Assembly (NCBI GenBank): GCA_029571905.1 | Contig: JAKPXU010000148.1 | Coordinates: 18,225-82,224 of the forward strand | DNA: 64,000 nucleotides | Direction of reading: 5' to 3' | Source of the DNA: Acidobacteriota bacterium | GTDB lineage: Bacteria > Acidobacteriota > Aminicenantia > Aminicenantales > Saccharicenantaceae | Part shown: positions 47 to 27,942 of the stretch, piece after piece | Position numbering within the stretch: the stretch's first letter is position 1 | How the letters are laid out: each line of letters opens with the position of its first letter | Position numbers and translations under genes: made by a program | The notes under the pieces: model-generated | Told to the model about the DNA's origin: nothing | Database searches by the model: none | Seen by the model: the letters and a program-made list of their open reading frames with translations, nothing else

Positions 47-2113
<2,067 letters not shown>

Positions 2114-10809: not shown

Positions 10810-10838
10810 TTGCAACTTAAGTTGTCTTTGTTTATAAT
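10810..10838 (+). promoter_or_regulatory. Sigma70-like promoter for tRNA-Asp
   Basis: TTGCAA, a 17-nt spacer, then TATAAT ending about 15 nt before the mature tRNA 5' end. Confidence 0.4.
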
Positions 10839-10853
10839 TTAGTCGCCCTGGGC

Positions 10854-10930
10854 GGGGTCGTAGTTCAGCTGGTTAGAACGCCGGCCTGTCACGCCGGAGG
10901 TCGCGAGTTCGAGCCTCGTCGGCCCCGCCA
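10854..10930 (+). tRNA. tRNA-Asp (GTC)
   Basis: 77-nt cloverleaf. The acceptor stem GGGGTCG pairs with CGGCCCC, the anticodon loop is CTGTCAC (anticodon GTC), the T-loop is TTCGAGC, and CCA is encoded. Confidence 0.9.
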
Positions 10931-11110
10931 CTTTTTCCACTCAATCTTTTGTTCTTGAAATTTTTGGGCTCCCCCGGTATCAATCCAGACGGAATATCTG
11001 TTTGGGACGCTCCTCTATCTCTCCGGTCAGCCAGAGATAGCAGCCAGTTACCTCTTTCCTTAATCTTTTTTGTGTGTTATATATAATTCTAATAAATTCA
11101 GGAGGAACCA

Positions 11111-11488
11111 ATGCCTGATAAAACCAAAATCCTGGTGATAGATGACGACCCGGCTATTTGTGTTTCAGTTAAAGCCATTCTGGAAGCCAGTGGCTATGAG
11201 GTGTTCACGGCTTTAAGCGGTAAAGAAGGGCTTGACCTTTTCCATCAGGTTGATCCAGATATTGTTCTGTGCGATATGATGATGGAAGATATAGATGCCG
11301 GGGCTAAAGTGGCCGGCGTGATCAAGAAAGAACAACCTGACCTGCCAGTTTTTTTGTTGAGCACTATCGGCGATGCCACCGCCCGAACTATTGGCCTTGA
11401 CGATCTCGGTTTTAATGGAGTTTTTCAGAAGCCAGTTAATTTTGACTTGCTGCTGAGTGTAATTGAAAAGCACAGGAAAAAGCCCTGA
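11111..11488 (+). CDS. Stand-alone CheY-like response-regulator receiver domain
   Basis: 125 aa with a DDD acidic pocket (VIDDDP) and the phospho-acceptor D in IVLCDMMME. There is no output domain. Confidence 0.8.
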   Translation: MPDKTKILVIDDDPAICVSVKAILEASGYEVFTALSGKEGLDLFHQVDPDIVLCDMMMEDIDAGAKVAGVIKKEQPDLPVFLLSTIGDATARTIGLDDLGFNGVFQKPVNFDLLLSVIEKHRKKP

Positions 11489-11517
11489 GGCCTGGCGGCC
11501 CGTTGACCAATTAGCAA

Positions 11518-12030
11518 ATGAGCATTTCTCTGGCTGATCTTTACCGGCAAAATTCAGATCTGGAAGCTTTTTGTCAGGAGGTCAGAAAACTGGGCGGTAA
11601 TTTTGAGCTGGACGCTCGTCAGATGGAAGCCCTTGGTCAGGCTTATTTTGAAGTCCATCCAGAGAAGTTTGTTCAAAGAAATCTGGATGAAGTCAGGCTG
11701 GGTTATCAACTGGCCCGATGCTGCTTGCTGGAAAAGGCTCTGGCCGGGCTGCCTCCTGCAGTTAAGGATTTTTTCAGGCAGGCTTTTGATCAGCCTGAAT
11801 GCATAGCTGGCCTCCTGGATGATTACAGGCGTTCGGAAAACCTGCCGCTTCTCGTCTCCTCTTTTAATTGCCTTCAAGCTTCACTGGACGAACTGAAAGC
11901 AGCCATTGATGAGTTACCTAAGGGGATGATTAAAGAAAGGTTTCTAGGAGGAATTTCGACTCTCTATAACACCAGGTATCTTCTGAGCATTTTTATTTCG
12001 CGTCTTGGCTCAAACGGTTTACAAAATTAG
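11518..12030 (+). CDS. Hypothetical protein (170 aa)
   Basis: An ORF with good coding periodicity and no motif I recognise. It lies between the orphan receiver and the hydrogenase-associated operon. Confidence 0.45.
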   Translation: MSISLADLYRQNSDLEAFCQEVRKLGGNFELDARQMEALGQAYFEVHPEKFVQRNLDEVRLGYQLARCCLLEKALAGLPPAVKDFFRQAFDQPECIAGLLDDYRRSENLPLLVSSFNCLQASLDELKAAIDELPKGMIKERFLGGISTLYNTRYLLSIFISRLGSNGLQN

Positions 12031-12105
12031 CTTATTCTGGTATCTTTTATTTTAAAACGCAAAAAACATATAACTCTCAAAACCTGACTGCCGAGGAGAA
12101 AAAGA

Positions 12106-14124
12106 TTGCCCTATTTTCGAGGAGTATGTAACTTCTGCGGGACTGGTTGTGGCCATCTGCTGCGAGTAGAAGGGAACCGGGTAAGAGGTGTTTATCCTCT
12201 CTCTGGTCATCCCTTAAGTCGCGGTCGGTTGTGCGTCCGCGGCTGGCATATTCATGAGCTTCTTCAGACGGAAGATAGAATTTCCCAGCCGCTCATTAAA
12301 GACGGTAGCAGTTTCAAGCCTGTTTCTTATGAAGAAGCTCTTGATTATGTGGTAGAAAGGGTAAAAAAACTGCCTGGCCGTCAGGTGGCTGTTCTTGGTT
12401 CTCCTCGGGCCTCCAACGAAGAGAATTATCTGTTAGGTAAGTTTGCCAGGGCAATCCTGAAAACAAATAATCTAAGTCTGTCGTCCGATGCCGGCCAGGA
12501 AGAAAGTGCCAGGGTGCTTCTTGAAGGCTGTGGCTGGCCAGCCATGACCGGTACGCTGGCCGAATTGAGACAGGCTGATTTTATCTTAGTGGTGGGCGGC
12601 GATCTGACCAAGCAGAATCCGATTATCGCCAGCGAAATCCATCATGCCCATCGAGCCGGGACTTTTTTAGCAACCATTTCCCCTCGGAAAACCCAAATGG
12701 CCAGGCTCAGCCAGCTTCATCTTAGACCTAAGCCTGGAACAATTTTTTACCTGCTTCAGGGTTTAGCCAGAGTTCTGGTTGAGGAGAAAGCTATTGATGA
12801 TGATTATTTATCAACATTTACAGTCAACAGCCAGACTTTCCTCGAAGAGTTGAAGCAGGTCGAAATAGAAAAGATAGTAGAAGCAACCGGTATTAGCAGA
12901 GAGCAGATGACCGGACTGGCCAGAAAATTGAAAGAATCTAATTCAGCTTGTGCCTTTTATCCAACGGGAGTGCAGAGCCTCGATCGCCGAACAATGGCTG
13001 CTCTCTTTAACCTTTTCCTTTTAGCCGGGAAAATTGGGCGGCGAGGAAGTGGGGTAAATCCGGTGACCGGCATCAGCAATCTGCTGGGCAGCTATGACAT
13101 GGGCCTTTCTCCTGTTTTCCTGCCTGGTTATGCTTCAGTTGAAGACGAGCTGGCCTGGGAGAGACTGGAAAATTTCTGGCAGACAAAGCTGGATCGCTGG
13201 TCAGGTAAGAATGTCGATACCTGCCTGTCAGAAGGGGAAGATATCAAAGCTCTTTTTGTGGTTGATCATGATGAGGAAATTATCAGACATGTCAATCGGA
13301 TAAGGCAGCTTGACTTAATAGTTTATTTTGGTGCTTATGAAAATCCATTTGCTTCTCTGGCTCATGTCATTTTTCCCAGAACGAGCTATGTAGAAGAGGA
13401 AGGAACTTATACCAACTCTGAACGCCGGGTTCAGCTGGTTCTGAAAAGAATCGAGCCGCCGGCTGGGGTCCGTCCCTTATGGAAAACCCTGACTAACCTG
13501 GCTCAGGCTCTCGGGCATGACTGGAATTATCATTCAGTTGAAAACATCATGAGTGAGATAAGTCAGCTGGTTCCTTATTATCGTAGTCTGACTTATGAAA
13601 AACTTAAGGCCAGACTTGGCTTGAAATGGCCAAATGATGATCTACATCCTGAAGGTACAGATTGCTTGCTGGTGGAAGAAGCAAGCCGGCGCTTCCGATT
13701 TGTTCAGGTAAATGGTCAGGAGAAAAAGCTGGCTGGTGAGCCCGAGGTTCAGAAAGATTTTCCTTTTAAATTAGTGGTGGGGCGGAGCAATTATTTCTGG
13801 CACCAGAATTCTGTCATGAAAAGGACTTTTATTCCCAAACGCGAATATAATGCTCTTCTCCTTCTCTACCCCAGAGGTTTTGTTGAAATTTCGAAAGAAG
13901 ATGCCAGCCGTCTCGGCCTGAGAGAAAAACAAGTAGTGAGAATAGTGGCTGAATCGGCTGAGGTCAGGCTGGCAGCCAGAATCTCAGGCGATATTCTGCC
14001 CGGTATGCTTTACATACCTTATTTTATTGATGAGATGATTCCCGAATTTCTTCACCGGCAGGTAGCTGATTTAGAAAAGAACGAAGAGTTCTTTCTGCCG
14101 GTCAGATTGGAAAAGGTGGTTTAA
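12106..14124 (+). CDS. Formate dehydrogenase H-like molybdopterin oxidoreductase subunit (catalytic residues apparently substituted)
   Basis: 672 aa. It has an N-terminal 4Fe-4S motif (CxxCxxxC...C) and is colinear with FdhF from memory (KFARA..TNN, GVNPV.G, C-terminal MGD cap). There is no in-frame TGA. Confidence 0.8.
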   Translation: MPYFRGVCNFCGTGCGHLLRVEGNRVRGVYPLSGHPLSRGRLCVRGWHIHELLQTEDRISQPLIKDGSSFKPVSYEEALDYVVERVKKLPGRQVAVLGSPRASNEENYLLGKFARAILKTNNLSLSSDAGQEESARVLLEGCGWPAMTGTLAELRQADFILVVGGDLTKQNPIIASEIHHAHRAGTFLATISPRKTQMARLSQLHLRPKPGTIFYLLQGLARVLVEEKAIDDDYLSTFTVNSQTFLEELKQVEIEKIVEATGISREQMTGLARKLKESNSACAFYPTGVQSLDRRTMAALFNLFLLAGKIGRRGSGVNPVTGISNLLGSYDMGLSPVFLPGYASVEDELAWERLENFWQTKLDRWSGKNVDTCLSEGEDIKALFVVDHDEEIIRHVNRIRQLDLIVYFGAYENPFASLAHVIFPRTSYVEEEGTYTNSERRVQLVLKRIEPPAGVRPLWKTLTNLAQALGHDWNYHSVENIMSEISQLVPYYRSLTYEKLKARLGLKWPNDDLHPEGTDCLLVEEASRRFRFVQVNGQEKKLAGEPEVQKDFPFKLVVGRSNYFWHQNSVMKRTFIPKREYNALLLLYPRGFVEISKEDASRLGLREKQVVRIVAESAEVRLAARISGDILPGMLYIPYFIDEMIPEFLHRQVADLEKNEEFFLPVRLEKVV

Positions 14125-14127
14125 GCA

Positions 14128-15195
14128 ATGTACTGGCTGACAAAAGAACAGTTGCCACTGCTGGTTCAAAAACTGGCTGAAGAATATAAAATCTTTGGTC
14201 CCCGCCATGACCGCGTTTCGGGTGAGGTGATCTTTGACCATCTACCCGATCTATCCGAGCTGGATCTGCAAGCGGCCATTCCTTATAATCCGCCCAAGTT
14301 CATTCTTTTCCCCCACTATGAAGAGATCCTTAAATACCGCTACCAACCAGAAACAAAAAAAGTCAGAATTGAACAGCTCAATCTCCTGGAACCGAAGGCT
14401 TTGATCGGTTTAAGATCCTGTGACCTGACTGGTTTGCTCTGTCTTGACCGCTTTTTCCTCGATCAGGAATATGTAGATGAATTTTATTTAGCTCACCGAA
14501 AAAAGTTGTTTATCGTTTCCAATACCTGCATCAGGCCATTTCCACAGTGTTTCTGCGTCTGTACGGACAGTGGCCCGGCGGCCAGGGAAGGCTTCGATCT
14601 TGATCTGACTTTTACCGGCCGCGATTACCTGGTTGAAGCTGGTTCGAAGAAAGGGCAGGCTTTGGTCGAAGAGCTAAATCTGGTCGAGGCTGATCCTGAG
14701 TCTTTAAATCTCAGAAAGCAGATAATAGACGATTCGGTCTCCTCTTTTGACCGCTTTGCTCTGGAAAACAAAGCCTGGATTTCGCGGGCAACCAATCGGT
14801 TGACCACCGGCTTTATCAAGCCTGAGGTCTGGGAATATATCGGGAATCAGTGTTTTGAATGTGGAGCTTGCTCTTTTGTTTGTCCTACCTGCTCCTGTTT
14901 TAATATTGAGGATGCTAATCTGGCCAGCGGTGAAACCAGCCGGCTGAGGACCTGGGACTCCTGTTCTTTTGAAGGTTATACCAAAATGGCCGGAGATCAT
15001 AATCCAAGAAAACCGGTTGAAGATCGTCGTAACAAAAGGTTCTTTTGCAAATTATCTTATTCCCAATCAAAAAAATATCTGAGACCTGGCTGTGTTGGCT
15101 GCGGTCGTTGTGCCAGGGTCTGTCCTGGCGATATAGGTTTGCCCAATGTCGTCACTTACATCAGGCGTGAAATCACTGGAGAATCTGGAGAATAA
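14128..15195 (+). CDS. 4Fe-4S cluster protein, sulfhydrogenase beta (HydB) / AsrA-like
   Basis: 355 aa with a C-terminal FeS motif (CFECGACSFVCPTCSCF) and a further motif CVGCGRCARVCP. The architecture resembles HydB/AsrA partners of HydG/AsrB-type flavoproteins. Confidence 0.65.
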   Translation: MYWLTKEQLPLLVQKLAEEYKIFGPRHDRVSGEVIFDHLPDLSELDLQAAIPYNPPKFILFPHYEEILKYRYQPETKKVRIEQLNLLEPKALIGLRSCDLTGLLCLDRFFLDQEYVDEFYLAHRKKLFIVSNTCIRPFPQCFCVCTDSGPAAREGFDLDLTFTGRDYLVEAGSKKGQALVEELNLVEADPESLNLRKQIIDDSVSSFDRFALENKAWISRATNRLTTGFIKPEVWEYIGNQCFECGACSFVCPTCSCFNIEDANLASGETSRLRTWDSCSFEGYTKMAGDHNPRKPVEDRRNKRFFCKLSYSQSKKYLRPGCVGCGRCARVCPGDIGLPNVVTYIRREITGESGE

Positions 15196-15200
15196 AAGCT

Positions 15201-16040
15201 ATGGTTAAAAATTTAGTGCCTATAGTCTCTATTCCAGAAGTTGCTACTATCGTTGATATCCGGGATGAAATTGAAGAGGTCAAAAGCTTTTATTTTACTC
15301 TGGACCGACCGGAAATCGAGGAAGCTTTTAAGATTCGCTCCGGCCAATTTATAATGTGCACCGTCTTTAGAGCAGGCGAATTTGCCGTTTCTTTGCCTTT
15401 CAGTCCGGAGAATGACCGCAAGCATATTTCGGTAAGGAAGGTGGGGAAAGTTACAGCTGCTTTGCATCAGCTTGAACCAGGCGACAAAATCGGAGTCAGA
15501 GGTCCCTTTGGCAATGGCTTTCCTTTTGAAGAAATAAAGGGAAGCAATATCATCTATGTAGCCGGTGGGATCGGCCTTATCCCACTTCGCTCGTCAATTG
15601 TTCATGTCCTCCAGCACCGGCAGGATTTCGGTCGGGTAATTCTGGTTTACGGGGCCAAAAGCTCAAAAGAACTGATGTACAAAGAAAGCATAAGAGAATG
15701 GCAGGCCACAGAAAACTTTGAGACCCACTTTACGATCGACCGACCCGAACCGGGTTGGTCCGGAGAGGTTGGTTTTGTCAACCACCTGACAGCTAAACTT
15801 GATTTGCCGGTCTCCAACACAGTGGCCTTTGTTTGTGGTCCGCCGGTTATGTTTAATGCTGTGATTAAAGAACTCAAGCTAAAGGGAATAAAAGAACAAA
15901 ATATTTATTCAACTCTGGAAAGGCATATGAAATGTGGGATTGGCAAGTGCCAGCATTGCGCTATAGGCCGGACACTGGTCTGTGTGGATGGACCCGTTTA
16001 TACCTATAAACAGATTAGAACCCTGGGAGAGCAAATCTAA
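15201..16040 (+). CDS. FAD/NAD(P)-binding oxidoreductase with C-terminal [2Fe-2S], HydG/AsrB/PyrK-like
   Basis: 279 aa with a ferredoxin-NADP reductase-like fold (GGIGLIPL) and a C-terminal CGIGKCQHC cluster motif as in PyrK/HydG. Confidence 0.72.
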   Translation: MVKNLVPIVSIPEVATIVDIRDEIEEVKSFYFTLDRPEIEEAFKIRSGQFIMCTVFRAGEFAVSLPFSPENDRKHISVRKVGKVTAALHQLEPGDKIGVRGPFGNGFPFEEIKGSNIIYVAGGIGLIPLRSSIVHVLQHRQDFGRVILVYGAKSSKELMYKESIREWQATENFETHFTIDRPEPGWSGEVGFVNHLTAKLDLPVSNTVAFVCGPPVMFNAVIKELKLKGIKEQNIYSTLERHMKCGIGKCQHCAIGRTLVCVDGPVYTYKQIRTLGEQI

Positions 16041-16580
16041 ATGGAACCCCTCGAGAGTTTACAGCAAATCCTGACCGGTCGAACCTGTTTGGTTGGCATC
16101 GGCAATAAATTGCGCGGCGATGACGGCGTTGGCCTCTATTTTATAGAATCAATTAAATTAAAAGGTTTCTTTCCTCCCGATAACCTGCTGACTGTGGAGG
16201 ATGTCCCTGAAAATTATGCTTTTCCCCTGGCCCAAAAAGCTGTTGAGAATGTAATTTTCATTGATGCTGTCCTCTTCAATGCTCCAGCCGGGACGGTTAT
16301 CTTTGGCCCGCTGACAGAGCTGGAAGAAGTCAGCCAGATTGTTTCAACCCATAAATTATCCCTGAGGTTAACTGCTCAACTACTGGAGAAAACCGGTAAA
16401 AAGGTTTTTCTTCTGGGCATTGTTCCTGAAACCACTGGTTTTGGCCAGGAATTGACCCCTCAGATCAAAAAAATCGCCGATGAACTGATAACCATCTTTG
16501 AAAAGACCCTGGATAAGGCTTCGCCTCTTGAGAACCCGGGCGAACGAGCAGCAATTCAGGTTGGAAGGGAGAAAGGCTGA
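16041..16580 (+). CDS. [NiFe]-hydrogenase maturation endopeptidase (HycI/HyaD family)
   Basis: 179 aa with the GIGNxxxGDDGVG signature (CLVGIGNKLRGDDGVGL). The start codon abuts the upstream stop. Confidence 0.8.
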   Translation: MEPLESLQQILTGRTCLVGIGNKLRGDDGVGLYFIESIKLKGFFPPDNLLTVEDVPENYAFPLAQKAVENVIFIDAVLFNAPAGTVIFGPLTELEEVSQIVSTHKLSLRLTAQLLEKTGKKVFLLGIVPETTGFGQELTPQIKKIADELITIFEKTLDKASPLENPGERAAIQVGREKG

Positions 16581-18478
16581 TGACTATCCTGTCAGGTTTC
16601 GGGCTCTTCTGGCTGAGTTTGCTTCTGGCTTCCTTCCTGGCGCTAATCTTAAAGAAAAAAACCAACTATCTTCGCTCCGCCGGGACTTTATTGCTCTGTC
16701 TGAGTTGCTTGATACTGATCTTTATCTCCCTATCTGTACTGGGGAAAGGCGGCTCTCCTCTCGAATTCGAGGTTAAAGTCGGGAGTTTTCATCTGCCATT
16801 TTTAATTGATGGCCTGTCGGCGCTCTTTCTCCTGCTTCTTTCTGTTTTAACTTTAGCTTCAGTCATTTTTTCGCTGGATTTTGTCAAAAAATATAAAGGT
16901 GACGAGTTCTGGAAATATTATCTGATATTGCCTCTGTTTATTGGTGGCCTGACCGGACTGCTGACCGTTGATGACCTCGGACCGGGCTTTACCCTGGCCT
17001 GGCAGTTAATGGTTATCTCTTCTTATCTTTTAATCAGATGGGGAAGGCCGACTAAAGTTTCAGCCCGACCGGCTTTAGTCTATCTTCTTTTTATGGAAGC
17101 CGCCTGGCTGATGATTACTGGTTCTGCTTTCCTGGCCAAAGGTTATATTTTTGGTGATTCGCTGGGTACTGTTGGCTTGAAGCTGGCTCAAAGTGGCCCC
17201 TGGCAGGCTATTTTATTTTTTAGCCTCCTCTTTCTCGGCTTTGGTATTAAAACGGGGGTTTTCCCTTTTGGACAATGGTGGATACCTGATGCCTATTCGA
17301 CTGCCTGGCCTCAGGTTTCTTCTCTTCTGGCCGGTCTTCTGGAAAAGACTGGCGTTTTCGGGTTGATTCGAATCTTTTTCTTTGTGGCCAAAAGCTCAGG
17401 CGCAGCTTTTAATCCTGATCTCTGGGGAAAGGTGCTGGTGGTAGCTGGAGTAATAACGCTTTTTATTGGGACTGTTCAGGCTATCAAACAGAGTGACTAT
17501 CTCCGCCTTCTGGCTTATAGCTCGATCGGACAGGTTGGCTACATAATTTTTGCTCTGGGGAGTAGCCTGCTGGCCTGGAATAGCTCCTTACCTCTGGCAA
17601 AATCTCTAGCCTCAGTTATTTTTATTGCTGCTGTTTATCATAGCCTTAACCATGGTATTTTTAAGGGTCTCCTTTTTCTACTGGGAGGAAACCTCCTTTA
17701 TGCTACCGGCACGCGTGACTTGAATCGCCTGGGTGGACTGCTATCTGTTATGCCAGTCAGTGGCTTTCTGGCGGCTATTGCTTCTTATTCTATCTCCGGT
17801 ATGCCAGCTTCCAGCGGTTTTGTCAGTAAATGGTTAATGATTTCCTCTAATTTTCTGGCCGGTCGGGGCAGCTTGCTTTTGACCCTTTCTGGCATTGTAG
17901 CTCTTTTCACTGCTGCTTTTACCTTAGCCTGCTATGTCAAATTTTTTGGTCTGGCTTTTACTTCTGCTGGTGCCAGCTGGAAACTGAAAAGAAGCATTAA
18001 GGAAGTCCCCTGGAAGTTGCTGGCTTCTGAAATCTTCCTGACCGTCATTTGCTTGAGCCAGGCTTTTCTTCCAATGGGCTATGTTAAGCTGATTGACCGC
18101 AGCCTTGGACTTTCTTCTGGCTTCCTTTTGTCAGAAGCTGGTGGGGATTTACTGAGTGGAAAGATGTTCAGTTTAAAAATTCATGACGGCCAAAGCCTCC
18201 TGGCGGCCACTTCCCCGCTTTTAATGCTGTTTCTCATTGTTTTATTGGCTTTCCTGGCCTATTGGTTTAGCCGGTCGGCACATCCAGCCGAGATCAAAGT
18301 TCCTGCCTGGCTTTGCGGATACCAGGATTTAAACTTGAATAATGTTTATGCTGACCGTCATGTCTTCTCTGATTTAAAGAAATTTTTCTGGTGGACGGGC
18401 GGCTCGCCTAAAAAAGTTATTGACGATAATGACCCGACTGTTTTGCCTGATAGCCAGCCAAAAGGTGAAGTAGAATGA
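16580..18478 (+). CDS. Group-4 hydrogenase membrane subunit, NuoL/HyfB/HycC-like antiporter-type
   Basis: 632 aa polytopic membrane protein in the complex I L / Mrp antiporter family. It overlaps the protease stop by ATGA. Confidence 0.78.
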   Translation: MTILSGFGLFWLSLLLASFLALILKKKTNYLRSAGTLLLCLSCLILIFISLSVLGKGGSPLEFEVKVGSFHLPFLIDGLSALFLLLLSVLTLASVIFSLDFVKKYKGDEFWKYYLILPLFIGGLTGLLTVDDLGPGFTLAWQLMVISSYLLIRWGRPTKVSARPALVYLLFMEAAWLMITGSAFLAKGYIFGDSLGTVGLKLAQSGPWQAILFFSLLFLGFGIKTGVFPFGQWWIPDAYSTAWPQVSSLLAGLLEKTGVFGLIRIFFFVAKSSGAAFNPDLWGKVLVVAGVITLFIGTVQAIKQSDYLRLLAYSSIGQVGYIIFALGSSLLAWNSSLPLAKSLASVIFIAAVYHSLNHGIFKGLLFLLGGNLLYATGTRDLNRLGGLLSVMPVSGFLAAIASYSISGMPASSGFVSKWLMISSNFLAGRGSLLLTLSGIVALFTAAFTLACYVKFFGLAFTSAGASWKLKRSIKEVPWKLLASEIFLTVICLSQAFLPMGYVKLIDRSLGLSSGFLLSEAGGDLLSGKMFSLKIHDGQSLLAATSPLLMLFLIVLLAFLAYWFSRSAHPAEIKVPAWLCGYQDLNLNNVYADRHVFSDLKKFFWWTGGSPKKVIDDNDPTVLPDSQPKGEVE

Positions 18479-20166
18479 GCAGAAAAGAAGAATTACTGAA
18501 CCTGCTTAAGGATAAATTGAGAGGGAAGTTTCTGGCCGGGAGCAGTCTGGAAGATAAGCGTTTGTTTATTGATATAAAAAAAGAAGCACTGGTCGAAACA
18601 GCCAGTCTCCTGATGAAAGAGGGCGCCCGCTATCAAATGGGCGTTGGCTATGAGGCCAAGAAGAATGGCCAGGGTCTGGCCATGGTTCACACCTTTGCCT
18701 TTGATGCTGATTCTCTGCTGGTGGCTATCAGGGCTTTAACAACAGAAGATAAGCCAGAATTTGATTCGCTCACCCCTTTCATTCCTGGTGCTGGCTGGTC
18801 AGAGCGTGAATATATTGACCTTCTCGGGCTTCATTTTAAAAATCATCCGAATCCCAAACGCCTGGTACTGTCTGATGACTGGCCGGAGGGAATTTATCCT
18901 CTTCGCCAGGATGTCCCTTATGACCTGATGCCCCCCTCGGCCGAAGAGGTAGCTTTCCGGCTCGACGAGGCTCCGCCTGGCAGTTCTATCATTCCCTTTG
19001 GACCTTTTCATGCCTGTCTGCATGAGCCTGCTCATTTTGCTGTTTATGTAGATGGGGAGGAAATCAAGGGCTGTGAATACAGAGGTTTTATGGTTCATCG
19101 GGGCATTGAAAAATTAGCCGCGACCGAGCTTACCTATAATGAAATACCTTTTGTAGCTGAACGAATTTGTGGGATTTGCGGCTCAGTGCATTCGGTCAAT
19201 TATGCTCAGGCTGTCGAGGCAGCTTCTGGCCTTAAAATTCCACGGCGAGCTGAGTTTATCAGAACAATTATGCTGGAAATAGAGAGGCTTCATTCCCACC
19301 TGATGTGGTTGGGAGTGGCCGGCCACCTCATCGGCTTTGATACTGTTTTTATGCAGGCCTGGAGAATAAGGGAGAAAATAATGTGGCTGGCCGAAAGTCT
19401 GACCGGCAATAGGAAAACTTATGGAATGGTCATCGTCGGGGGTGTAAGACGGGATATCGATCTGACCAAAGCTGACCTGATTAAGAAAACCCTGTCCGAA
19501 GTTGAAAAAGATATGCTGGCTCTGGAAAAGGCCATTATCAAAGATAAAGCTATCCACAGAAGAACTAAAGGTGTTGGCTATCTCTCCAGAGAAAAGGCGG
19601 TGGAGTGGAATCTGGTAGGACCGGTGGCCAGAGCCCGCGGACTGGATATGGATGCGAGGAGAGACCACCGCTATGCTGCTTATGATGAGGTGAAGTTTGA
19701 TGTTGTGGTGGCTGATTCCAGTGATGTCTGGGGAACACTGGTCGTCAGGATTAAAGAGATTTATGAGGCCATAAAGATTATCCATCAGTGCCTGGGGAAA
19801 CTGGCTTCGGAGCTCCAGGGTTCTCCCCTTGCTATTGAGATAGAAGGATCGATTCCAGCTGGTCAACAGGGATTGTCGGTAGTGGAGGCGCCGCGGGGAG
19901 AAGCTGTCCACTACGTCCTTACCGGTGATGATAACCGTCCAGAACGCTGGCGGGTGCGAGCGCCAACTTATCCCAACCTCCAGGCCGTACCTGATATGTT
20001 GCTCAATAACAAGCTGGCTGATTTTCCCATTATAGTTGGCTCAATTGATCCCTGCATATCCTGCACTGACCGGGTAGCGGTTATAGATAGAAAAACAGCT
20101 GCTGACAGAATTTTAAGCCGACAGGAGCTGGAAAAACTGTCCAGAGAGGTGAGGTCTAAGACATGA
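18475..20166 (+). CDS. Group-4 [NiFe]-hydrogenase large subunit with fused NuoC-like N-terminal domain (HycE-like)
   Basis: 563 aa. It carries an N-terminal NuoC-like domain, the L1 motif RICGICGSVHS and the C-terminal L2 motif DPCISCTDR. Confidence 0.9.
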   Translation: MSRKEELLNLLKDKLRGKFLAGSSLEDKRLFIDIKKEALVETASLLMKEGARYQMGVGYEAKKNGQGLAMVHTFAFDADSLLVAIRALTTEDKPEFDSLTPFIPGAGWSEREYIDLLGLHFKNHPNPKRLVLSDDWPEGIYPLRQDVPYDLMPPSAEEVAFRLDEAPPGSSIIPFGPFHACLHEPAHFAVYVDGEEIKGCEYRGFMVHRGIEKLAATELTYNEIPFVAERICGICGSVHSVNYAQAVEAASGLKIPRRAEFIRTIMLEIERLHSHLMWLGVAGHLIGFDTVFMQAWRIREKIMWLAESLTGNRKTYGMVIVGGVRRDIDLTKADLIKKTLSEVEKDMLALEKAIIKDKAIHRRTKGVGYLSREKAVEWNLVGPVARARGLDMDARRDHRYAAYDEVKFDVVVADSSDVWGTLVVRIKEIYEAIKIIHQCLGKLASELQGSPLAIEIEGSIPAGQQGLSVVEAPRGEAVHYVLTGDDNRPERWRVRAPTYPNLQAVPDMLLNNKLADFPIIVGSIDPCISCTDRVAVIDRKTAADRILSRQELEKLSREVRSKT

Positions 20167-21062
20167 AGGTGGTGGCTGTCTTCGTCAATTTAATCTATTT
20201 TCTCCTGCTGGCCCCTTTTCTGGAGGGGGTGATGAGAAAGCTAACGGCCTGGATTCAATCGAGGAAAGGCCCACCGCTCTATCAGCCTTATCTTGATCTT
20301 CTGAAACTTTTAGGCAAGGAAAATTTAAACTCAGGTGGGAACTGGGCTTTTCGACTGGCGCCTATTCTGTCTTTTAGCTCAATGCTGGCGGCTATCGCCC
20401 TTATCCCTCTGACCGGTCAGGCCAATATTTTAGCTCATTCATCAGACTTAATGACTCTGATTTATTTTTTGACCCTGAGCGGTTTTTGTCTGCTGGTCGG
20501 GGCTTTAGGCAGTGGGAATCCCTTTGCGGCGGTGGGGGCCAGCCGGGAAATGATGACAACGGTTATGCTCGAACCGGTTCTGGCTATGCTCTTGATTCTG
20601 GGTACAGTTAGAATCGGTAGCTTCTCTTTGAGTGCCGCCGTCTCGGGCGTGGCGGTCAGCAGAGGTGTTTCCTATTTTCTGATGCTGGTTGTTTATCTTC
20701 TGGCTCTTCAGGCTTTTGCCGCCAGACAGCCTTTTGATATCGCCGAAGCTGAGGTTGAAATTCTGGAAGGACCCTATATGGAATATAGCGGACCGAATTA
20801 TGCTCTACTCCGTTATACTTTAAATCTTAAGAGAATGTTTTATGCCTGGCTTCTTGTCTCTTGCTTTTTAAGTTTTATTCTGCCAGCCAATTTTCTTTTT
20901 AGTCTGCTGTTGCAGACTGTGCTGATTATCGTGGTCTTTATTTTAATTTCGCTTATTGGAGCGACTCATCCACGTTTCCGAATAGACCAGGCCTTAAAAT
21001 ATTATGCATTGCTTTTAATTTTAGCCCTGATAGCAGTTGGTTTGGCGGTTAAGGGCTGGTGA
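20163..21062 (+). CDS. Hydrogenase membrane subunit, NuoH/HycD-like
   Basis: 299 aa multi-TM protein in the NuoH family; translationally coupled by a 4-nt overlap. Confidence 0.78.
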   Translation: MKVVAVFVNLIYFLLLAPFLEGVMRKLTAWIQSRKGPPLYQPYLDLLKLLGKENLNSGGNWAFRLAPILSFSSMLAAIALIPLTGQANILAHSSDLMTLIYFLTLSGFCLLVGALGSGNPFAAVGASREMMTTVMLEPVLAMLLILGTVRIGSFSLSAAVSGVAVSRGVSYFLMLVVYLLALQAFAARQPFDIAEAEVEILEGPYMEYSGPNYALLRYTLNLKRMFYAWLLVSCFLSFILPANFLFSLLLQTVLIIVVFILISLIGATHPRFRIDQALKYYALLLILALIAVGLAVKGW

Positions 21063-21083
21063 TGATGAAAGGCGGGGTTTAAG

Positions 21084-21647
21084 ATGTGGCTCTGGAATAA
21101 AATCAAACAACTGGCCATTCCTTCCAGGACAGGCGTCGTTACTCTGCGTTATCCTTATAAGCCCAGGCCGGCTCCCGCCGGTTTCCGCGGCCAGCCTGTC
21201 TGGGATCATACCAAATGCATTGGTTGTGCCGGCTGCGCCAGCAACTGCCCGGCCAGAACCATTTTCCTCCGGGATATCTGTCAGGAAATAAGGATTCTCC
21301 TTTATGATTCGTCTCGCTGCACTTATTGCGGTAGATGTGCTGACCTCTGTCCGGAAAAAGCCATCACCATGAGCGAAAATTTTGAACTGGCTACCGATAA
21401 TCGCCAGGATATAACTCAGACCATAGAGCTGTTTATGATGACCTGTCAACGCTGTGGCCGCTGCTACGACCTGGAAATAAAGAATGCCCTTGATAAGCTG
21501 CAAATGCTTGGCTACCGTTATGATAGCCTGGAGGTCAGAAAAGTCATAAGGCAGTCAACGCCTGAATTGGAACCCGAGCATTTAGAGAAAACAGCTACTT
21601 ATCGCCGTCCCGAAAAACTGGAGAAGTCGTCATGTGGAAAAGACTAA
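21084..21647 (+). CDS. 2x[4Fe-4S] ferredoxin subunit, NuoI/HycF-like
   Basis: Two CxxCxxCxxxCP motifs (CIGCAGCASNCP and CTYCGRCADLCP). Confidence 0.8.
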   Translation: MWLWNKIKQLAIPSRTGVVTLRYPYKPRPAPAGFRGQPVWDHTKCIGCAGCASNCPARTIFLRDICQEIRILLYDSSRCTYCGRCADLCPEKAITMSENFELATDNRQDITQTIELFMMTCQRCGRCYDLEIKNALDKLQMLGYRYDSLEVRKVIRQSTPELEPEHLEKTATYRRPEKLEKSSCGKD

Positions 21648-22192
21648 CAGAGAAGGCTTTTCGCCGCTCAGTCTGGGTTTATCATTGCAACAGCGGAGCC
21701 TGCAATGGTTGTGATATAGAAATCCTGAATGTTTTAACGCCTTATTATGATGTGGAGAGATTCGGCATCAGGTTAGTTGCCTCTCCCCGTCATGCCGATG
21801 CCATTCTTCTCTCAGGGGCAGTGACCAGACCAACGCTGCCTCTGGTTAAGAAAGCCTATCAGGCAGTGCCAGCCCCGAAGCTGGTCTTTGCCGTCGGGTC
21901 CTGTGCCATCGGGGGAGGATGCTGGTATGACACCTATAACGTGACTGGTGGTGGGGATAAAGCCATCCCGGTCAATTATTTTATTCCGGGCTGTCCGCCC
22001 CGGCCGGAAGCCATCATCTTCGGGGTAGCTCTGGCTCTGGGCCTGGTTGACAAGAAAGTGGCACCGGTTGAGCTCAAGCAGATGGAGTTCCCGGTTGATA
22101 TGTACCGGCAAGCAAAAATTCTGGAAAGCAACCGCGTAATATATAAACTTCTGGGCGAAGAAGATGACCGCCTTCTATCCGGGAGGAAATGA
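21632..22192 (+). CDS. Group-4 [NiFe]-hydrogenase small subunit, NuoB/HycG-like
   Basis: Motifs CNGCDIEI, GSCAIGGG and PGCPPRP typical of NuoB-type proximal-cluster subunits. Confidence 0.88.
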   Translation: MWKRLTEKAFRRSVWVYHCNSGACNGCDIEILNVLTPYYDVERFGIRLVASPRHADAILLSGAVTRPTLPLVKKAYQAVPAPKLVFAVGSCAIGGGCWYDTYNVTGGGDKAIPVNYFIPGCPPRPEAIIFGVALALGLVDKKVAPVELKQMEFPVDMYRQAKILESNRVIYKLLGEEDDRLLSGRK

Positions 22193-22599
22193 CGATGGCC
22201 AGAATTCTATTGGTTGATGACGACCGTGACCTGACCGACAGCTTAAGTCAGATCTTGCGTCTTAAAGGCTATGAGGTGGTTGTAGCTTATAACGGGGCAG
22301 AAGGATTAAAGAAACTACTGGAAACGAAACCGGATCTGGTCATTATGGATGTTATGATGGAAACAGACACGGCTGGCTTTGAAGCTATTTATAAAATCAG
22401 AAGTGAACGTCCTGATTCTAAATTCAGAGACTTTAAGGATATTCCCATTATTATCCTGACCGCTATTGACCAGGTGACCAACTCGAGATTTTCTCTTGAT
22501 CAGGAAGAGAGCTTTTTACCGGGTCGCAATGAGTTTTTGAATAAACCGGTTGATCCTGATGAGCTATTGGAAAAAATAGAAAAAAACCTCAAAAAATAA
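22189..22599 (+). CDS. Stand-alone CheY-like receiver domain (paralogue of 11111-11488)
   Basis: 136 aa with a DDD pocket and the phospho-acceptor D in LVIMDVMMETDTAG. Its start overlaps the hydrogenase small-subunit stop (ATGA). Confidence 0.8.
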   Translation: MTMARILLVDDDRDLTDSLSQILRLKGYEVVVAYNGAEGLKKLLETKPDLVIMDVMMETDTAGFEAIYKIRSERPDSKFRDFKDIPIIILTAIDQVTNSRFSLDQEESFLPGRNEFLNKPVDPDELLEKIEKNLKK

Positions 22600-22601
22600 C
22601 C

Positions 22602-24545
22602 ATGGATCTTAAGGAATTCCTTAATAAGACCTCTGCCTTGAGGTCCAGTTTGCGCTTCAAGCTGATTAGCGGTCTTCTGACCATTGTCTTCTTAATGGGC
22701 GCTCTATCTATTTATATTGGTATTAACTCAATTAACCGTAATGTTATCAGAGAGGCCTATGATAATCTGCGCAACAGCCTGAAGGCTATCAGTGATCTTT
22801 ATCAGGAAGAAATCAACACCAGGGCGAAAATAGTGGAGTATCTGTCCAGAACTTCAGAAATAGTTAACGCCACAGCTGCCGGCAACAGAGAATATCTTTA
22901 TGAGAAGCTTGTTCAGATCAAAGAAGAATTCGACTTCGATATAGTCAATGTGGTTAAGCCAGATGGTACTATTCTGGTTCGAGCTAACAACTTTGAAGCT
23001 TATGGGGACAGTGTTATTCATTATAAATTTATTCAATGGGTTCTAAAAAACAAAAAGCCTGCTGCCGGCACCGGCATTCTTGGTTATGAAAATATAAAAA
23101 ATGAAGGGCCGGATCTGGCCGAGAGGACCCTGATCAATGTTATCCCGACCCCACGAGCCCGAACCATACGCCGGGAGGTAGAAGAAAGAGCCCTGGTCCT
23201 CAAAACAGTTGTGCCGATTTTTCAGAGAAATAGATTGGTCGGAGTTCTCTATGCAGCTGTTTTGCTTAACAATAACGAACGTTTTGTTGACCGTTTTAGA
23301 AGATTCATTTTTAAAGAAGAGAAAATAAAAGGCAAAGACGTCGGAACTACTACTATTTTTTTGGAGGATGTCAGGATAGCGACCAATGTCCTGGACAAAG
23401 ATGGGAAAAGAGCGGTCGGGACAATTGTCTCGGAGGAAGTCTATCATCAGGTTTTTGAGCAGGGAAAAGACTGGCTTGGTCGGGCTTTTGTGGTCAATGA
23501 TTATTATCTCTCCGGTTATACCCTGCTGCGCGATATTGAAGGGCAGCCAGTCGGCATGCTTTATGTTGGTATTCTCGAATCTAAATTTAATCAGATCCTG
23601 CGGCAGACCACAATATTGTATTTTGTCCTGATTTTCCTGATGACCGGGATCGCCATTTATATTTCCACCTATCTGGTCAACCTCTATACCAGACCTATAA
23701 ATAAAATGATAAAATTGACAGCCGAAGTGGCCAGGGGGAACTATCACCTGATAGATATTTCGCCCAAAGAAAGCGAGGAGATAAGAGAAGTAGAAGAATC
23801 TTTTAATGCTATGGTTAAAGCTATAGAGGAAAGAGATAATCGTTTAAAAGAACTGGCCGAGAAAACAATTTTGCGGTCAGAAAAATTAGCCTCAATGGGA
23901 CGGCTGGCGGCGGGTATTGCCCATGAAATCAACAATCCGCTGACTGGGATCCTGACCTATAGCAGTCTGCTGCTGGAGGAGCTAAAGGGTACTCCTTATG
24001 AAGAAGATTTAAAGGTCATCACCGAAGAGACTCTGCGCTGTCGTAAGATAGTCAGAGGACTGCTGGATTTTGCCCGCGACTACAAACCGGAAAAAGTCAG
24101 TGTTAATCTTAACACTCTCATTGAACAGACCCTGCAGATTTTAGAAAATCATGTCAGTTTCCAGAATATTAAGATTATCAGAAATCTTGATCAGAATTTG
24201 CCTGAGGTAAGAATTGATGCTGACGAATTCCGGTCAGTTATCAATAATCTAGCTGTTAATGCTGCTGATGCTATGCCCAATGGTGGACAGCTGACGATTT
24301 CAACCTCGTATGATCCCGAGGCCAGGCAGGTTATAATAAAGGTAGCTGATACAGGAGTGGGCATAAGCGAGGAAAATCTAGGACGAATTTTTGAACCATT
24401 TTTCACCACCAAGGAAAAAGGGAAAGGTACCGGCCTGGGCCTGGCTATGGCCTATGGAGCCATCAAGCGGCATAATGGTACGATTGATGTGAAGAGCAAA
24501 GTCGGTGAGGGAACAGAGTTCATTATAAGATTACCGGTAGATTAG
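22602..24545 (+). CDS. Sensor histidine kinase with periplasmic double-Cache-like domain
   Basis: 647 aa. Two TM helices flank a periplasmic domain of about 300 aa, followed by a HAMP-like region, an H-box ([11 protein letters not shown]) and HATPase N/G boxes. Confidence 0.85.
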
Positions 24546-24564
24546 AACCGGAAGGAGAAAAGAT

Positions 24565-25629
24565 ATGAGCAAGCCGAGAATTCTATTTATTGATGATGAG
24601 GAAATCGTCCTGCGTAGTTGCCGGCGGATTTTTGCCAATTCAGATTATGAGATAGATACCGCCCAATCTGGAGAAGAAGGCCTGAGCAAGGCTATCAATG
24701 GAGATTATGACATTGTAGTCACTGATTTAAAAATGCCTGGAATTGGCGGCATGGAGGTGCTTTCCAGGTTGAGAAAGGTCAGGCCTGATACTACTGTGAT
24801 CATTTTCACCGGTTATGCCAGCGTTGATACTGCCCGTGAAGCCTTAAAAAATGGAGCCTTCGATTATATTCCAAAGCCTTTTACTCCGGAGGAAATGAGA
24901 GAGGTCATCAAGAACGCGCTCGAAGCGCGGGCTGGGAAAGAGCGCAATATGCTTGACCTGATGGCTATCGTCTCCCATGAATTGAAAAGTCCACTCTCTG
25001 CTCTTCATACCACCGCCTCCACTCTTTACAAAGGTTGTTTTGGTCAGCTGTCTCCAGAGCAGATGAAAATCTTGGAGACTATTATCCGTAATTGCGAATA
25101 TCTGGAGGATATCATTCGCAGCTATCTAGACCTGTCGAAAATGGAACTGGAGCAGCTGGAAGCCTTCAAAGAAGAAATCTATTTTGTCAAAGATGTGGTT
25201 GAGGAGGTACTCAATCTACCTGAAATTGCTGACAACGGGAAAAAAATGAAGGTTACCAAAAATTTTCAGGAAGACATCAAGATCACCGGTGATCCACGGC
25301 TATTGAAGATTCTGGTCAGGAATCTGATCAACAATGCTATAAAGTATGGATATGAAGGTACAGAAGTGAAGCTTGGCCTGGAAAAAAAGGATAGTGAAAT
25401 GATTTTTTCCGTCTATAACGAAGGAGTGGGCATAAGACCGGAGGATAGCCACCGCCTTTTCCGTAAATTTGAAAGGTTAAAACAGCCCGGGACAGAAGGA
25501 GTTAAAGGCTCAGGCCTTGGACTTTATATCTGCAAGAAAATAGTCGACAGCCACAAGGGACGGATCTGGTTTGAATCTGAACCGGGGAAATGGGTGACCT
25601 TCTATGTTGCCTTGCCCTTGGCCAGCTGA
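24565..25629 (+). CDS. Hybrid receiver-histidine kinase (REC-HisKA-HATPase)
   Basis: N-terminal receiver (ILFIDDE...VVTDLKMPG), then an H-box (SHELKSPLS) and an ATPase domain (GLGLYIC). Confidence 0.85.
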   Translation: MSKPRILFIDDEEIVLRSCRRIFANSDYEIDTAQSGEEGLSKAINGDYDIVVTDLKMPGIGGMEVLSRLRKVRPDTTVIIFTGYASVDTAREALKNGAFDYIPKPFTPEEMREVIKNALEARAGKERNMLDLMAIVSHELKSPLSALHTTASTLYKGCFGQLSPEQMKILETIIRNCEYLEDIIRSYLDLSKMELEQLEAFKEEIYFVKDVVEEVLNLPEIADNGKKMKVTKNFQEDIKITGDPRLLKILVRNLINNAIKYGYEGTEVKLGLEKKDSEMIFSVYNEGVGIRPEDSHRLFRKFERLKQPGTEGVKGSGLGLYICKKIVDSHKGRIWFESEPGKWVTFYVALPLAS

Positions 25630-25675
25630 GCTATTAAGTTCTTAGGGCTGACCCGGTTAAACTGCCTGCTTTTAA

Positions 25676-25705
25676 TTGACAATAGTGGAGGCTCTCTCCT
25701 ATAAT
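25676..25705 (+). promoter_or_regulatory. Consensus sigma70 promoter for ssrA
   Basis: TTGACA, an 18-nt spacer, then TATAAT ending 9 nt before the predicted tmRNA 5' end. Confidence 0.55.
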
Positions 25706-25714
25706 CTAAGTGTC

Positions 25715-26066
25715 GGGGGCGAAATGGACTCGACGGAGGTAGTGAAGCAGAAGCTGCAGGCCGAGGTCCCATCAACCTCGTTAAACAGGTGGGAAAAAAT
25801 TAACTGCAGAACCTGTTGCAGTCGCTGCCTGATAGAAAGTGCAGCCGTCTCCGCCAGCTTTTCCTGCGGGCTGGTCGAGACGCCGTTGAGCAGGATAGTC
25901 TGGCGGGCGTGCTCAGGGCTCGCTGGATGAACTAGCTCTTGAGCTGGTTGAGTGATGCTCTTCCTCTTCGAGAATCGCTCAATGAGATGCAAAGAAGAGG
26001 ATAAGCCTGTAGAGGCTAACTGTGGAATGCCTCCGGACGCGGGTTCGATTCCCGCCGCCTCCACCA
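25715..26066 (+). ncRNA. ssrA: tmRNA (SsrA)
   Basis: The 5' GGGGGCG pairs with the 3' CGCCTCC-A-CCA, including the G3:U alanine identity pair. There is a tRNA-like T-arm (GGGTTCGATTCCC). An internal reading frame GCA GAA CCT GTT GCA GTC GCT GCC TGA TAG gives a tag ending ...AVAA. Confidence 0.85.
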
Positions 26067-26099
26067 TTTTTTTATAAGGTTGAATTGATAGATAAAATA

Positions 26100-27925: not shown

Positions 27926-27942
27926 GCCGGCCAGGCAAATCT

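Follow-up and report, generated by a model that had tools for sequence, protein, structure and literature searches.

A 64,000-nucleotide stretch of DNA from an Acidobacteriota bacterium (GTDB lineage Bacteria; Acidobacteriota; Aminicenantia; Aminicenantales; Saccharicenantaceae; GenBank assembly GCA_029571905.1, contig JAKPXU010000148.1, positions 18,225 to 82,224; hereafter the window, with coordinates counted from its first letter) carries a plus-strand gene cluster in which the subunits of a membrane-bound [NiFe] hydrogenase are followed without a break by three two-component signalling proteins. This arrangement raises two questions, namely with which redox partner such an enzyme exchanges electrons, and what signalling proteins are doing in its operon. 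The cluster combines a group-4 [NiFe] hydrogenase of the Escherichia coli hydrogenase 3 (Hyd-3) type with a degenerate FdhH-like protein, a HydB/HydG module and a putative integrated phosphorelay, a combination that is new here, and the linkage of these elements is real and strongly conserved. The reading that we favour, although at somewhat less than even confidence, is that a Hyd-3-type hydrogenase has been joined to an electron-input module unlike that of formate hydrogenlyase (FHL) and to a dedicated phosphorelay, the terminal receiver of which would bind the enzyme rather than DNA.

Gene order and its conservation

Between positions 12106 and 25629, twelve plus-strand genes form an unbroken series (open reading frame (ORF) table and Pfam scans), with junctions of, in order, 3, 5, 0, -1, -4, -4, 21, -16, -4, 2 and 19 nucleotides (nt). 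A preliminary description of this DNA had proposed a single plus-strand series with tight junctions, and its layout and domain calls stand; its statement that the gaps are of 20 nt or less fails on one gap of 21 nt, the largest of the series, and the 'ATGA' that it placed at 16580 is a 1-nt TGATG overlap. A 16-nt overlap lies at 21632. The gene list given at that time was also incomplete, as a HycI-type protease gene (16041-16580) had been missed and the conserved unit begins at 11111, giving 14 genes (11111-25629) with two extra genes upstream.

The same order is found in a wide range of bacteria. A profile scan with the large subunit, taking one genome per species, returned 80 loci, which were annotated by phmmer with the proteins of the window as queries. 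Genes for AsrA- and AsrB-like proteins adjoin the hydrogenase in 63 of the 80 genomes, most of which carry the full order MoPT-AsrA-AsrB-HycI-NuoL-LSU-NuoH-NuoI-NuoB (the nine-gene core, with MoPT the FdhH-like molybdopterin protein and LSU the large subunit). These 63 genomes belong to Aminicenantes, Spirochaetota/Leptospirales, Verrucomicrobiota, Planctomycetota, Acidobacteriota, Gemmatimonadota, Armatimonadota and Fibrobacteria, and include the cultured betaproteobacterium Chitinibacter tainanensis DSM 15459. Within the subclade of the window, defined by a large subunit at least 58% identical (the entry for L013 being assigned by hand), a single-domain receiver is encoded directly after NuoB in 20 of the 20 evaluable genomes, among them Aminicenantes, Spirochaetota, Leptospirales, a Eubacteriales metagenome-assembled genome (MAG), Thermodesulfobacteriota and Chitinibacter. 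Thirteen of the 20 also carry a Cache-type sensor kinase, and most carry a kinase with its own receiver domain (REC-kinase); two have only the receiver and the REC-kinase (L017 and L024 carry the latter with no Cache kinase), and five, including Chitinibacter, have the receiver alone, with no adjacent kinase gene. The core is present without a receiver directly after NuoB in about 37 genomes.

The cluster thus recurs gene for gene in other phyla, and since the flanking genes vary between lineages, it is the cassette itself that is maintained as a unit, in an arrangement well outside what chance would produce. These observations bear out the earlier claim that the signalling genes belong with the hydrogenase genes, unlike the canonical layout of FHL or of energy-converting hydrogenase (Ech), and the check suggested at that time, a search of relatives for hycG directly followed by a receiver gene, does find this order; the contrary possibility, that signalling and hydrogenase genes never co-occur there, can be set aside.

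The receiver subfamily also follows NuoB in Gemmatimonadales (L058) and Armatimonadota (L070, L075), and is divergently transcribed in L064. In a Pirellulales MAG (L063, 1-5470), a Cache kinase, a 450-residue NtrC-sized regulator, a double receiver, a REC-kinase and the subfamily receiver stand in this order before the hydrogenase genes, a larger signalling set than that of the window, and 2 nt separate the subfamily receiver from the FdhH-like gene that follows it. In a reciprocal test, metagenome contigs were scanned with the receiver profile and annotated in the same way as the large-subunit loci, and the search returned to NuoB-like genes, with all five matches of at least 49% identity sitting directly after one. 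Several of the matches at 36-46% identity occur in canonical group-3b operons (Pfam): in L094 and L095 (about 1600-6380) the order is HydB-HydG-HydD-HydA-protease-receiver, with a 4-nt overlap of the receiver and protease genes, and in L102 (2400-8800) a receiver, a REC-kinase and a further receiver precede HydBGDA. Matches to the receiver profile in L099, L104 and L106 adjoin AsrA-like or NuoB-like genes, and those under about 36% identity were only generic receiver-kinase pairs. The link between receiver and hydrogenase therefore reaches beyond the group-4 family. No description of it was found in the literature searched on Saccharicenans, Aminicenantes, group 4f, Ehf, Chitinibacter, and sulfhydrogenase with response regulator.

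The limits of the cluster are marked by two RNA genes. Upstream, a tRNA gene (10854-10927) stands between a LemA/M48-peptidase pair and the first operon gene, and the plus-strand intergenic region that follows it (10928-11110), with a TG-extended TATATAAT-like box and a strong AGGAGG ribosome-binding site, is the probable promoter of the operon. Downstream, a tmRNA gene (25715-26066; Rfam, 195.7 bits) begins 86 nt past the last operon stop codon and is preceded by a perfect TTGACA-18-TATAAT sigma-70 promoter (25676-25705); a minus-strand ORF of 122 codons at 25699-26067 is an artefact of this gene. At the junctions between nuoB, the receiver and the kinases, no intrinsic terminator or strong promoter was predicted, the only perfect promoter being that of the tmRNA gene. 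A scan of positions 9000-28000 for sigma-70-like consensus gave 40 sites, compared with 23.9 +/- 4.6 expected from shuffles, most of them weak (9 of 12 matches) and within coding sequence.

Two further observations concern the genomic surroundings. At 37488-45000 of the window, a tyrosine recombinase gene (Phage_integrase family) adjoins a metallo-beta-lactamase-fold gene, and beyond it lie genes for a TetR regulator and an outer-membrane/HlyD-type efflux set. The hydrogenase cluster of L169 likewise has a TetR regulator and efflux set downstream, probably a coincidence. In L005 (7447-13911; GCA_041320535.1), the same large subunit occurs in a truncated cluster, in which the HydG-like gene is reduced to a 63-residue remnant and the NuoH-like gene is fused in frame to a TrkH domain, and which looks like a misassembly or a recent rearrangement.

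The hydrogenase core and its electron input

The subunits of a group 4 membrane-bound [NiFe] hydrogenase are completely represented in the one cluster, with NuoB-, NuoI-, NuoH- and NuoL-like proteins and the Ni-Fe motifs all in place (Pfam, tblastn). The large subunit (18475-20166, 563 residues), fused to a NuoC-like domain in the manner of NuoCD and HycE (Pfam Complex1_30kDa, NiFeSe_Hases, Complex1_49kDa), is 93-99% identical to MAG proteins of Candidatus Saccharicenans, the uncultured fermenter to which the operon is assigned, a genus of Aminicenantota, once candidate phylum OP8. It carries the motifs RICGICGSVH (L1) and DPCISCTDR (L2), followed by a 30-residue C-terminal extension, and its Ni-Fe ligands C232, C235, C527 and C530 are invariant across 15 relatives. 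The C-terminal tail fits processing by the co-encoded HycI-type maturation endopeptidase (16041-16580, 179 residues; Pfam HycI, tblastn to E. coli HycI), which exceeds the cut-off of TIGR00072 (91 versus 47 bits). Around these are found a NuoL/HycC/HyfB-like antiporter-type membrane subunit (16580-18478, 632 residues; Pfam Proton_antipo_M, NCBIfam hydrogenase 4 subunit B at 2.9e-89), a NuoH/HycD-like membrane subunit (20163-21062, 299 residues; Pfam NADHdh at 3e-54, tblastn to HycD), a NuoI/HycF-like subunit with two [4Fe-4S] sites (21084-21647, 187 residues; Pfam Fer4 families, NCBIfam FHL iron-sulfur subunit at 3e-32) and a NuoB/HycG-like small subunit (21632-22192, 186 residues; Pfam Oxidored_q6 at 1e-27). 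No gene of the cluster is better conserved than the last of these (72-90% identity, with 72-80% in subclade loci other than Aminicenantes).

The nearest solved relative of the large subunit is E. coli HycE (7z0s_E, 1.2e-121, 38.5% identity), and the small subunit is 47.6% identical to E. coli HycG. When all Hyc and Hyf proteins of E. coli were compared with the 64-kb window by tblastn, only HycC, D, E, F, G and I had counterparts, and none was found for HycA, HycB, HycH, HyfA, HyfE or HyfJ; the matches of HycC, HyfB, HyfD and HyfF all land on the single gene at 16580-18478. The presence of one antiporter-type subunit and the absence of HycB, both noted in the preliminary description, are borne out by this comparison, and the Hyc subunits that are missing from the cluster are not encoded elsewhere in the window. 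What does not survive is the term 'minimal', as the membrane arm equals that of Hyd-3: judged from these matches, the core corresponds to E. coli Hyd-3 minus HycB, and in a core of that type a single antiporter-like subunit is normal and no sign of reduction. A neighbour-joining tree (a distance tree only) groups the large subunits of the family in a clade of their own, separate from E. coli HycE/HyfG and the Thermococcus enzymes. An identity with group 4f (Ehr) was considered and rejected, as Ehr complexes are described as being without Ni-Fe ligands, and all four cysteines and a maturation protease are present here.

If the core is that of Hyd-3, is the enzyme a formate hydrogenlyase? The first gene of the twelve-gene series (12106-14124, TTG start, 672 residues; Pfam) encodes a protein of the molybdopterin family that resembles FdhH, with TIGR01591 (formate dehydrogenase alpha) as its best family match (1e-126) and a high overall similarity to solved formate dehydrogenases (1.8e-98). 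The earlier label 'FdhH-like' is therefore apt as a statement of family, but the FHL framing that came with it is misleading. In an alignment with the solved enzymes (HMMER), the selenocysteine (Sec) or cysteine is replaced by Gly130, the adjacent histidine by Gln131 and the arginine of RGQNNVQG by Thr321, so that the reference set of catalytic FdhH (Sec/Cys140-His141, Arg333) is absent. Across the molybdopterin proteins of 70 related loci, the Sec/Cys ligand and the catalytic arginine are missing in every AsrA/AsrB-linked cluster, whereas the true FdhH proteins of the same alignment, from Dehalococcoidaceae (L068, L072), Chloroflexia (L077) and Thermococcus (L082), keep both the C/U-H pair and the arginine; in L072 and L077 the FdhH ORF breaks exactly at the expected TGA-encoded Sec position. 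Furthermore, MGxTQH, MGENP, VQDIFLTETA and TTGR, four motifs that we take to contact the pterin cofactor, are degenerate in the clade of the window and intact in the true formate dehydrogenases. The N-terminal [4Fe-4S] motif (CxxCxxxC...C) is kept.

On these residues, the protein is not a credible formate dehydrogenase and is more probably a NuoG-like electron-transfer or scaffold subunit, from which, to judge by its motifs, the Mo/W-pterin cofactor has probably been lost. That the cluster nevertheless encodes a genuine formate hydrogenlyase, or another substrate:H2 lyase, in which the FdhH-like protein would be a Mo/W enzyme that oxidises formate or a related small substrate at a non-canonical site and the HydB/HydG pair a side branch to NAD(P), appears improbable. 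In addition to its family match and overall similarity, it can draw on the histidine that Spirochaetota relatives retain beside the lost cysteine, and on L063, the FdhH-like protein of which keeps the pterin-binding motifs although cysteine and arginine are lost. It is opposed by the absence of Sec/Cys and arginine from every AsrA/AsrB-linked member, by the degenerate motifs, by a TIGR01591 score (423.7 bits) far under the equivalog cut-off of 666.25, and by the position of the FdhH-like gene among the least conserved of the cluster (40-49% identity in subclade loci other than Aminicenantes, 36% in Chitinibacter). HycB, the ferredoxin onto which FdhH docks in FHL, is lacking in the window, and the ORFs that were examined around the operon include none for a formate channel.

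Also counting in favour of a formate hydrogenlyase is the one neighbour seen that has a relation to formate, a gene for a glycyl-radical enzyme resembling pyruvate formate-lyase (PFL), lying in three Aminicenantes-type loci (L006, 1-2569; L010; L011) directly upstream of the pair formed by the upstream receiver and a 170-residue protein; in L006 its activating enzyme is present as well. A link to formate by way of this gene was rejected, as it is confined to these three closely related loci.

The place of HycB is taken by two genes that point to a different partner. A HydB/AsrA-like subunit with multiple [4Fe-4S] sites (14128-15195, 355 residues; Pfam Fer4_22 at 1.5e-28) matches the NCBIfam models of ShyB, AsrA and HydB at 1e-42 to 1e-46, all under the equivalog cut-offs (157 bits versus 690 for ShyB), and a HydG/AsrB-like flavoprotein (15201-16040, 279 residues; Pfam FAD_binding_6, NAD_binding_1, DHODB_Fe-S_bind) matches those of hydrogenase gamma, ShyC and HydG at 1e-57 to 1e-70, again under the cut-offs (196 versus 600 for ShyC). 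By these scores the pair is related to the beta and gamma subunits of NAD(P)-dependent sulfhydrogenases without belonging to the same family. The HydG-like protein, which is 65-74% identical in the Spirochaetota and Chitinibacter loci, has intact FAD-binding, NAD(P)-binding and C-terminal [2Fe-2S] domains and a predicted NAD(P)(H) site. With this pair standing in for HycB, the redox partner is likely to be NAD(P)H and not formate, and it is likely the NAD(P)H/NAD(P)+ couple that is linked to H2 at the membrane. Electrons would pass from NAD(P)H through FAD and the [2Fe-2S] cluster to the clusters of HydB, thence through the [4Fe-4S] cluster of the FdhH-like protein and the NuoI-like clusters to that of the NuoB-like subunit and finally to the Ni-Fe site, while coupling to the membrane potential would be the task of the HycC- and HycD-like subunits.

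The proposed phosphorelay and its terminal receiver

The hydrogenase-associated receiver (22189-22599, 136 residues; Pfam Response_reg) is joined to the small-subunit gene more closely than by mere adjacency: its ATG overlaps the small-subunit stop codon (ATGA, 4 nt), and its ribosome-binding site, GGGAGGA, lies inside nuoB. Between Aminicenantes and Spirochaetota-type loci its identity is 59-70%, compared with 58-64% for the large subunit, and the receiver is thus as conserved as the catalytic subunit; the Chitinibacter receiver is 44% identical. The residues of phospho-chemistry (DDD, D54, T91 and K119) are kept in all aligned copies except that of Chitinibacter, which has glutamate at the phospho-site and asparagine in the acidic pocket, with no kinase genes adjacent. 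The subfamily has a signature of its own, consisting of DVMM[ENP]xxxxGF, a long alpha3-beta4 loop and a conserved ...RF...[FYW]LP..[DE]F.xKPV segment in place of alpha-4. In an AlphaFold2 model with a pLDDT of 85, this segment is the only low-confidence part, as might be expected of a surface that becomes ordered upon binding a partner. Taken with its genomic distribution, the sequence of the terminal receiver appears to place it in a subfamily that is particular to hydrogenases linked to NAD(P)H.

In Chitinibacter tainanensis DSM 15459 (NZ_KE386951.1), the full core cluster is accompanied by the receiver at L021 13726-14166, and hypE- and hypD-like genes are found 4-7 kb downstream on the other strand (a sequence reading, not a family search). 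An apparent NuoB-receiver fusion in L019 (13675-13772) was rejected as an artefact of a masked N run between the two genes; in the stored genome data such runs occur at receiver-gene borders both there and in L029, near 14270.

Two kinases complete the operon. The first, which starts 2 nt past the receiver (22602-24545, 647 residues), consists of a transmembrane segment, an extracytoplasmic double Cache-type domain, a second transmembrane segment, and HAMP, HisKA and HATPase domains (Pfam sCache_3_3, Cache_3-Cache_2, dCache_3 (weak), HAMP, HisKA, HATPase_c), and the only solved relatives of its sensor domain are chemoreceptor ligand-binding domains (5.5e-7). The second is a cytoplasmic REC-HisKA-HATPase kinase (24565-25629, 354 residues; Pfam), 57-68% identical in the Spirochaetota loci. 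Read from their sequences, the H-box of the Cache kinase (AHEINNPL) is of the NtrB type, that of the REC-kinase (SHELKSPL) is of the EnvZ/PhoR type beside an NtrC-like receiver, and the stand-alone receivers resemble those of the OmpR/CheY class, in agreement with NCBIfam matches. Both kinases carry HisKA and HATPase_c, and neither has a cytoplasmic PAS domain.

A further single-domain receiver opens the conserved unit (11111-11488, 125 residues; Pfam Response_reg at 1.5e-20), with the acidic DDD pocket, the phospho-aspartate, serine and lysine all present. It is followed by a conserved all-helical protein of 170 residues without an assigned function (11518-12030), and both genes are kept at the same position in Aminicenantes and related loci (L001, L006-L015), where the receiver is 63-88% identical. 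The 170-residue protein, which several lineages carry together with the upstream receiver, gives a confident eight-helix model without an invariant histidine, and its weak fold matches include non-haem globin-like sensor domains (the RsbR N-domain, the DosC globin and pXO2-61). All three receivers of the operon are either stand-alone or fused to a kinase core, with no DNA-binding or enzymatic output domain.

What, then, is the output of this system? From the types of H-box and receiver, an order of transfer can be proposed in which the Cache kinase would phosphorylate the NtrC-like receiver of the REC-kinase, which would in turn phosphorylate the single-domain receiver or receivers; the 136-residue receiver, made in step with the small subunit, would then act on the hydrogenase itself, through its activity, assembly or coupling. 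An output at the level of protein is favoured by the retention of the receiver where no kinase genes adjoin, by the glutamate at the phospho-site of the Chitinibacter receiver, and by the operon's want of a DNA-binding regulator together with the lack of any sigma-54-type site upstream of it (matches over the whole window being below chance expectation). The preliminary description had suggested ligand-regulated assembly or activity of the complex, of which regulated activity is favoured here, on comparative evidence only.

The most serious alternative is an autoregulated operon, in which the relay would end in an unlinked DNA-binding regulator, for example of the NtrC type, controlling transcription of the hydrogenase genes, the single-domain receivers serving as phosphate sinks or shuttles. 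Sensor systems are commonly co-transcribed with their target operon, the Cache kinase H-box and the REC-kinase receiver are of NtrB/NtrC type, and the 450-residue regulator that follows the Cache kinase in L063 is matched by regulators of similar size nearby in L040 and L046; we regard this explanation as possible but doubtful. Across the subclade of the window, no DNA-binding regulator is found in the operon or its immediate flanks, and a Pfam survey of the other ORFs of the window gave only the TetR-family regulator at 38.6 kb; the missing sigma-54 site also speaks against it. In a sink or shuttle, moreover, conservation equal to that of the catalytic subunit would be surprising, as would persistence where both kinase genes are missing from the locus or a glutamate phospho-site as in Chitinibacter, and the same receiver subfamily ends group-3b operons with no kinase nearby.

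The signal might also run in the opposite direction, the hydrogenase-like complex itself sensing H2 or redox state and signalling to the kinases and receivers, in the manner of HoxBC-HoxJ-HoxA. This reading, also raised in the preliminary description, finds its sole support in the linkage of hydrogenase and two-component genes and in the precedent of the group-2b H2 sensors, and it fits poorly with a full energy-converting architecture, in which two membrane subunits and an NAD(P)H module are encoded along with a maturation protease and, on the large subunit, a cleavable C-terminal extension. The kinase inputs, furthermore, are an extracytoplasmic Cache domain or a receiver only, with no cytoplasmic PAS domain to dock a hydrogenase, and the same core occurs in the roughly 37 genomes that lack a receiver directly after NuoB. 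A sensory role for the complex is accordingly considered very improbable.

Several points weigh against the proposal of a receiver that binds a hydrogenase fed by a module other than that of FHL. No fusion of receiver and hydrogenase was found: the 120 closest homologues are all 114-143 residues long, and wherever a long protein occurs among the 150 best cluster representatives, it is a multi-receiver kinase or has an unrelated architecture. When a possible docking site was sought in the nine core subunits, no insertion or deletion of note tracked the presence of the receiver. Given the NtrB-type H-box of the Cache kinase and the regulator that follows this kinase in L063, it stays plausible that the output is transcriptional and runs through an unlinked regulator, and promoters within the coding sequence are possible. 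With respect to the electron input, enzymes such as arsenite oxidase function without a protein ligand to Mo, and in three related loci the PFL-like gene adjoins the cluster.

A bolder version of the favoured proposal would make the receiver a regulatory subunit, itself controlled by phosphorylation, of the NAD(P)H-linked [NiFe] hydrogenases, both the membrane family and the soluble group 3b, and would make the enzyme a surviving intermediate that stands between formate hydrogenlyase and complex I; taken as a whole, we consider it unlikely. Its consequences, and those of the more limited proposal, merit attention all the same. A receiver dedicated to a hydrogenase would, if true, represent a new post-translational control of H2 metabolism and the first two-component switch of a hydrogenase at the protein level, and since a cultured carrier of the cluster and receiver exists in Chitinibacter tainanensis DSM 15459, the idea is testable. 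Should the FdhH-like subunit be inactive and the partner be NAD(P)H, the predicted formate and H2 fluxes of many uncultured anaerobes would need revision, among Aminicenantes, Spirochaetota, Verrucomicrobiota, Acidobacteriota and Armatimonadota, in which clusters of this kind are prone to annotation as formate hydrogenlyase. An FdhH protein decayed to a NuoG-like subunit on a Hyd-3 core, beside a flavoprotein NAD(P)H module, would also bear on the origin of complex I from hydrogenases.

Comparison with known systems

The system closest to the core is FHL-1 of E. coli (hydrogenase 3; HycBCDEFG and FdhF; PDB 7Z0S), with which the cluster shares HycC, HycD, a fused NuoCD-type HycE, HycF, HycG and HycI, the single antiporter-like subunit, and the Ni-Fe motifs and cleavable C-terminal tail of the large subunit. 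It differs in lacking HycB, HycH and HycA, in an FdhF counterpart without Sec/Cys, histidine and arginine, in the added HydB/HydG pair, and in the two-component genes inside the operon, where E. coli uses control of the FhlA/HycA type. Compared with the group 3b sulfhydrogenases (Pyrococcus furiosus SHI/SHII, HydBGDA), the input module has the same make-up of a poly-FeS protein and of FAD, NAD(P) and [2Fe-2S] domains, and members of the same receiver subfamily occur upstream of metagenomic operons of the group-3b type or close them at the 3' end; here, in contrast, the module, which falls short of the equivalog cut-offs, would be joined to a membrane group-4 core through the FdhH-like and NuoI-like subunits.

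The FdhH-like protein, which gives weak matches to NuoG and QrcB models, resembles NuoG/Nqo3 of complex I (and QrcB) in having an FdhH-derived fold without the catalytic ligand and, presumably, in serving as the FeS-carrying or structural part of a flavoprotein-fed complex of NuoBCDHIL type. Unlike NuoG, it is without N-terminal [2Fe-2S]/[4Fe-4S] ferredoxin-like domains, and the complex as a whole is distinguished from complex I by a flavoprotein partner of HydG type (FAD) instead of NuoF (FMN) and by a terminal site of Ni-Fe instead of quinone.

With regard to signalling, the H2-sensing regulatory hydrogenases (HoxBC-HoxJ-HoxA of Ralstonia eutropha/Cupriavidus necator; HupUV-HupT-HupR of Rhodobacter capsulatus) are, to our knowledge, the only well-known unit of [NiFe] hydrogenase and two-component system. 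They consist of soluble group-2b sensors without a protease or C-terminal extension, a PAS-docked kinase and an NtrC-type transcription factor as output, whereas the cluster described here has an apparently working membrane enzyme with HycI, a Cache kinase, a putative single-domain receiver output and no NtrC-type regulator.

A hydrogenase cluster of related composition has been described in Saganbacteria RX5A as an 'enigmatic group 4 hydrogenase', with an unclassifiable FdhH-like protein bearing one 4Fe-4S site and asrA- and asrB-like genes, to which the authors assigned no function (Matheus Carnevali et al., 2019; PMC6349859, Supplementary Note 5); as far as that account of it goes, clusters of this kind have so far been unexplained. 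Both clusters pair a group-4 hydrogenase with an FdhH-like protein and asrA-/asrB-like genes, but in that of RX5A NuoC and NuoD are separate and are accompanied by a CooF-like protein and by antiporter subunits of the Mrp type, and the passages of that source concerned with it mention no receiver or kinase.

The terminal receiver itself is best compared with the single-domain response regulators that act on protein machines, such as CheY on FliM, CpdR on ClpXP, and DivK. From these it is set apart as a distinct subfamily, with its own signature and no chemotaxis or cell-cycle genes in its context; what it has in common with them is a stand-alone receiver domain that keeps all the residues of phospho-chemistry and has no output domain of its own.

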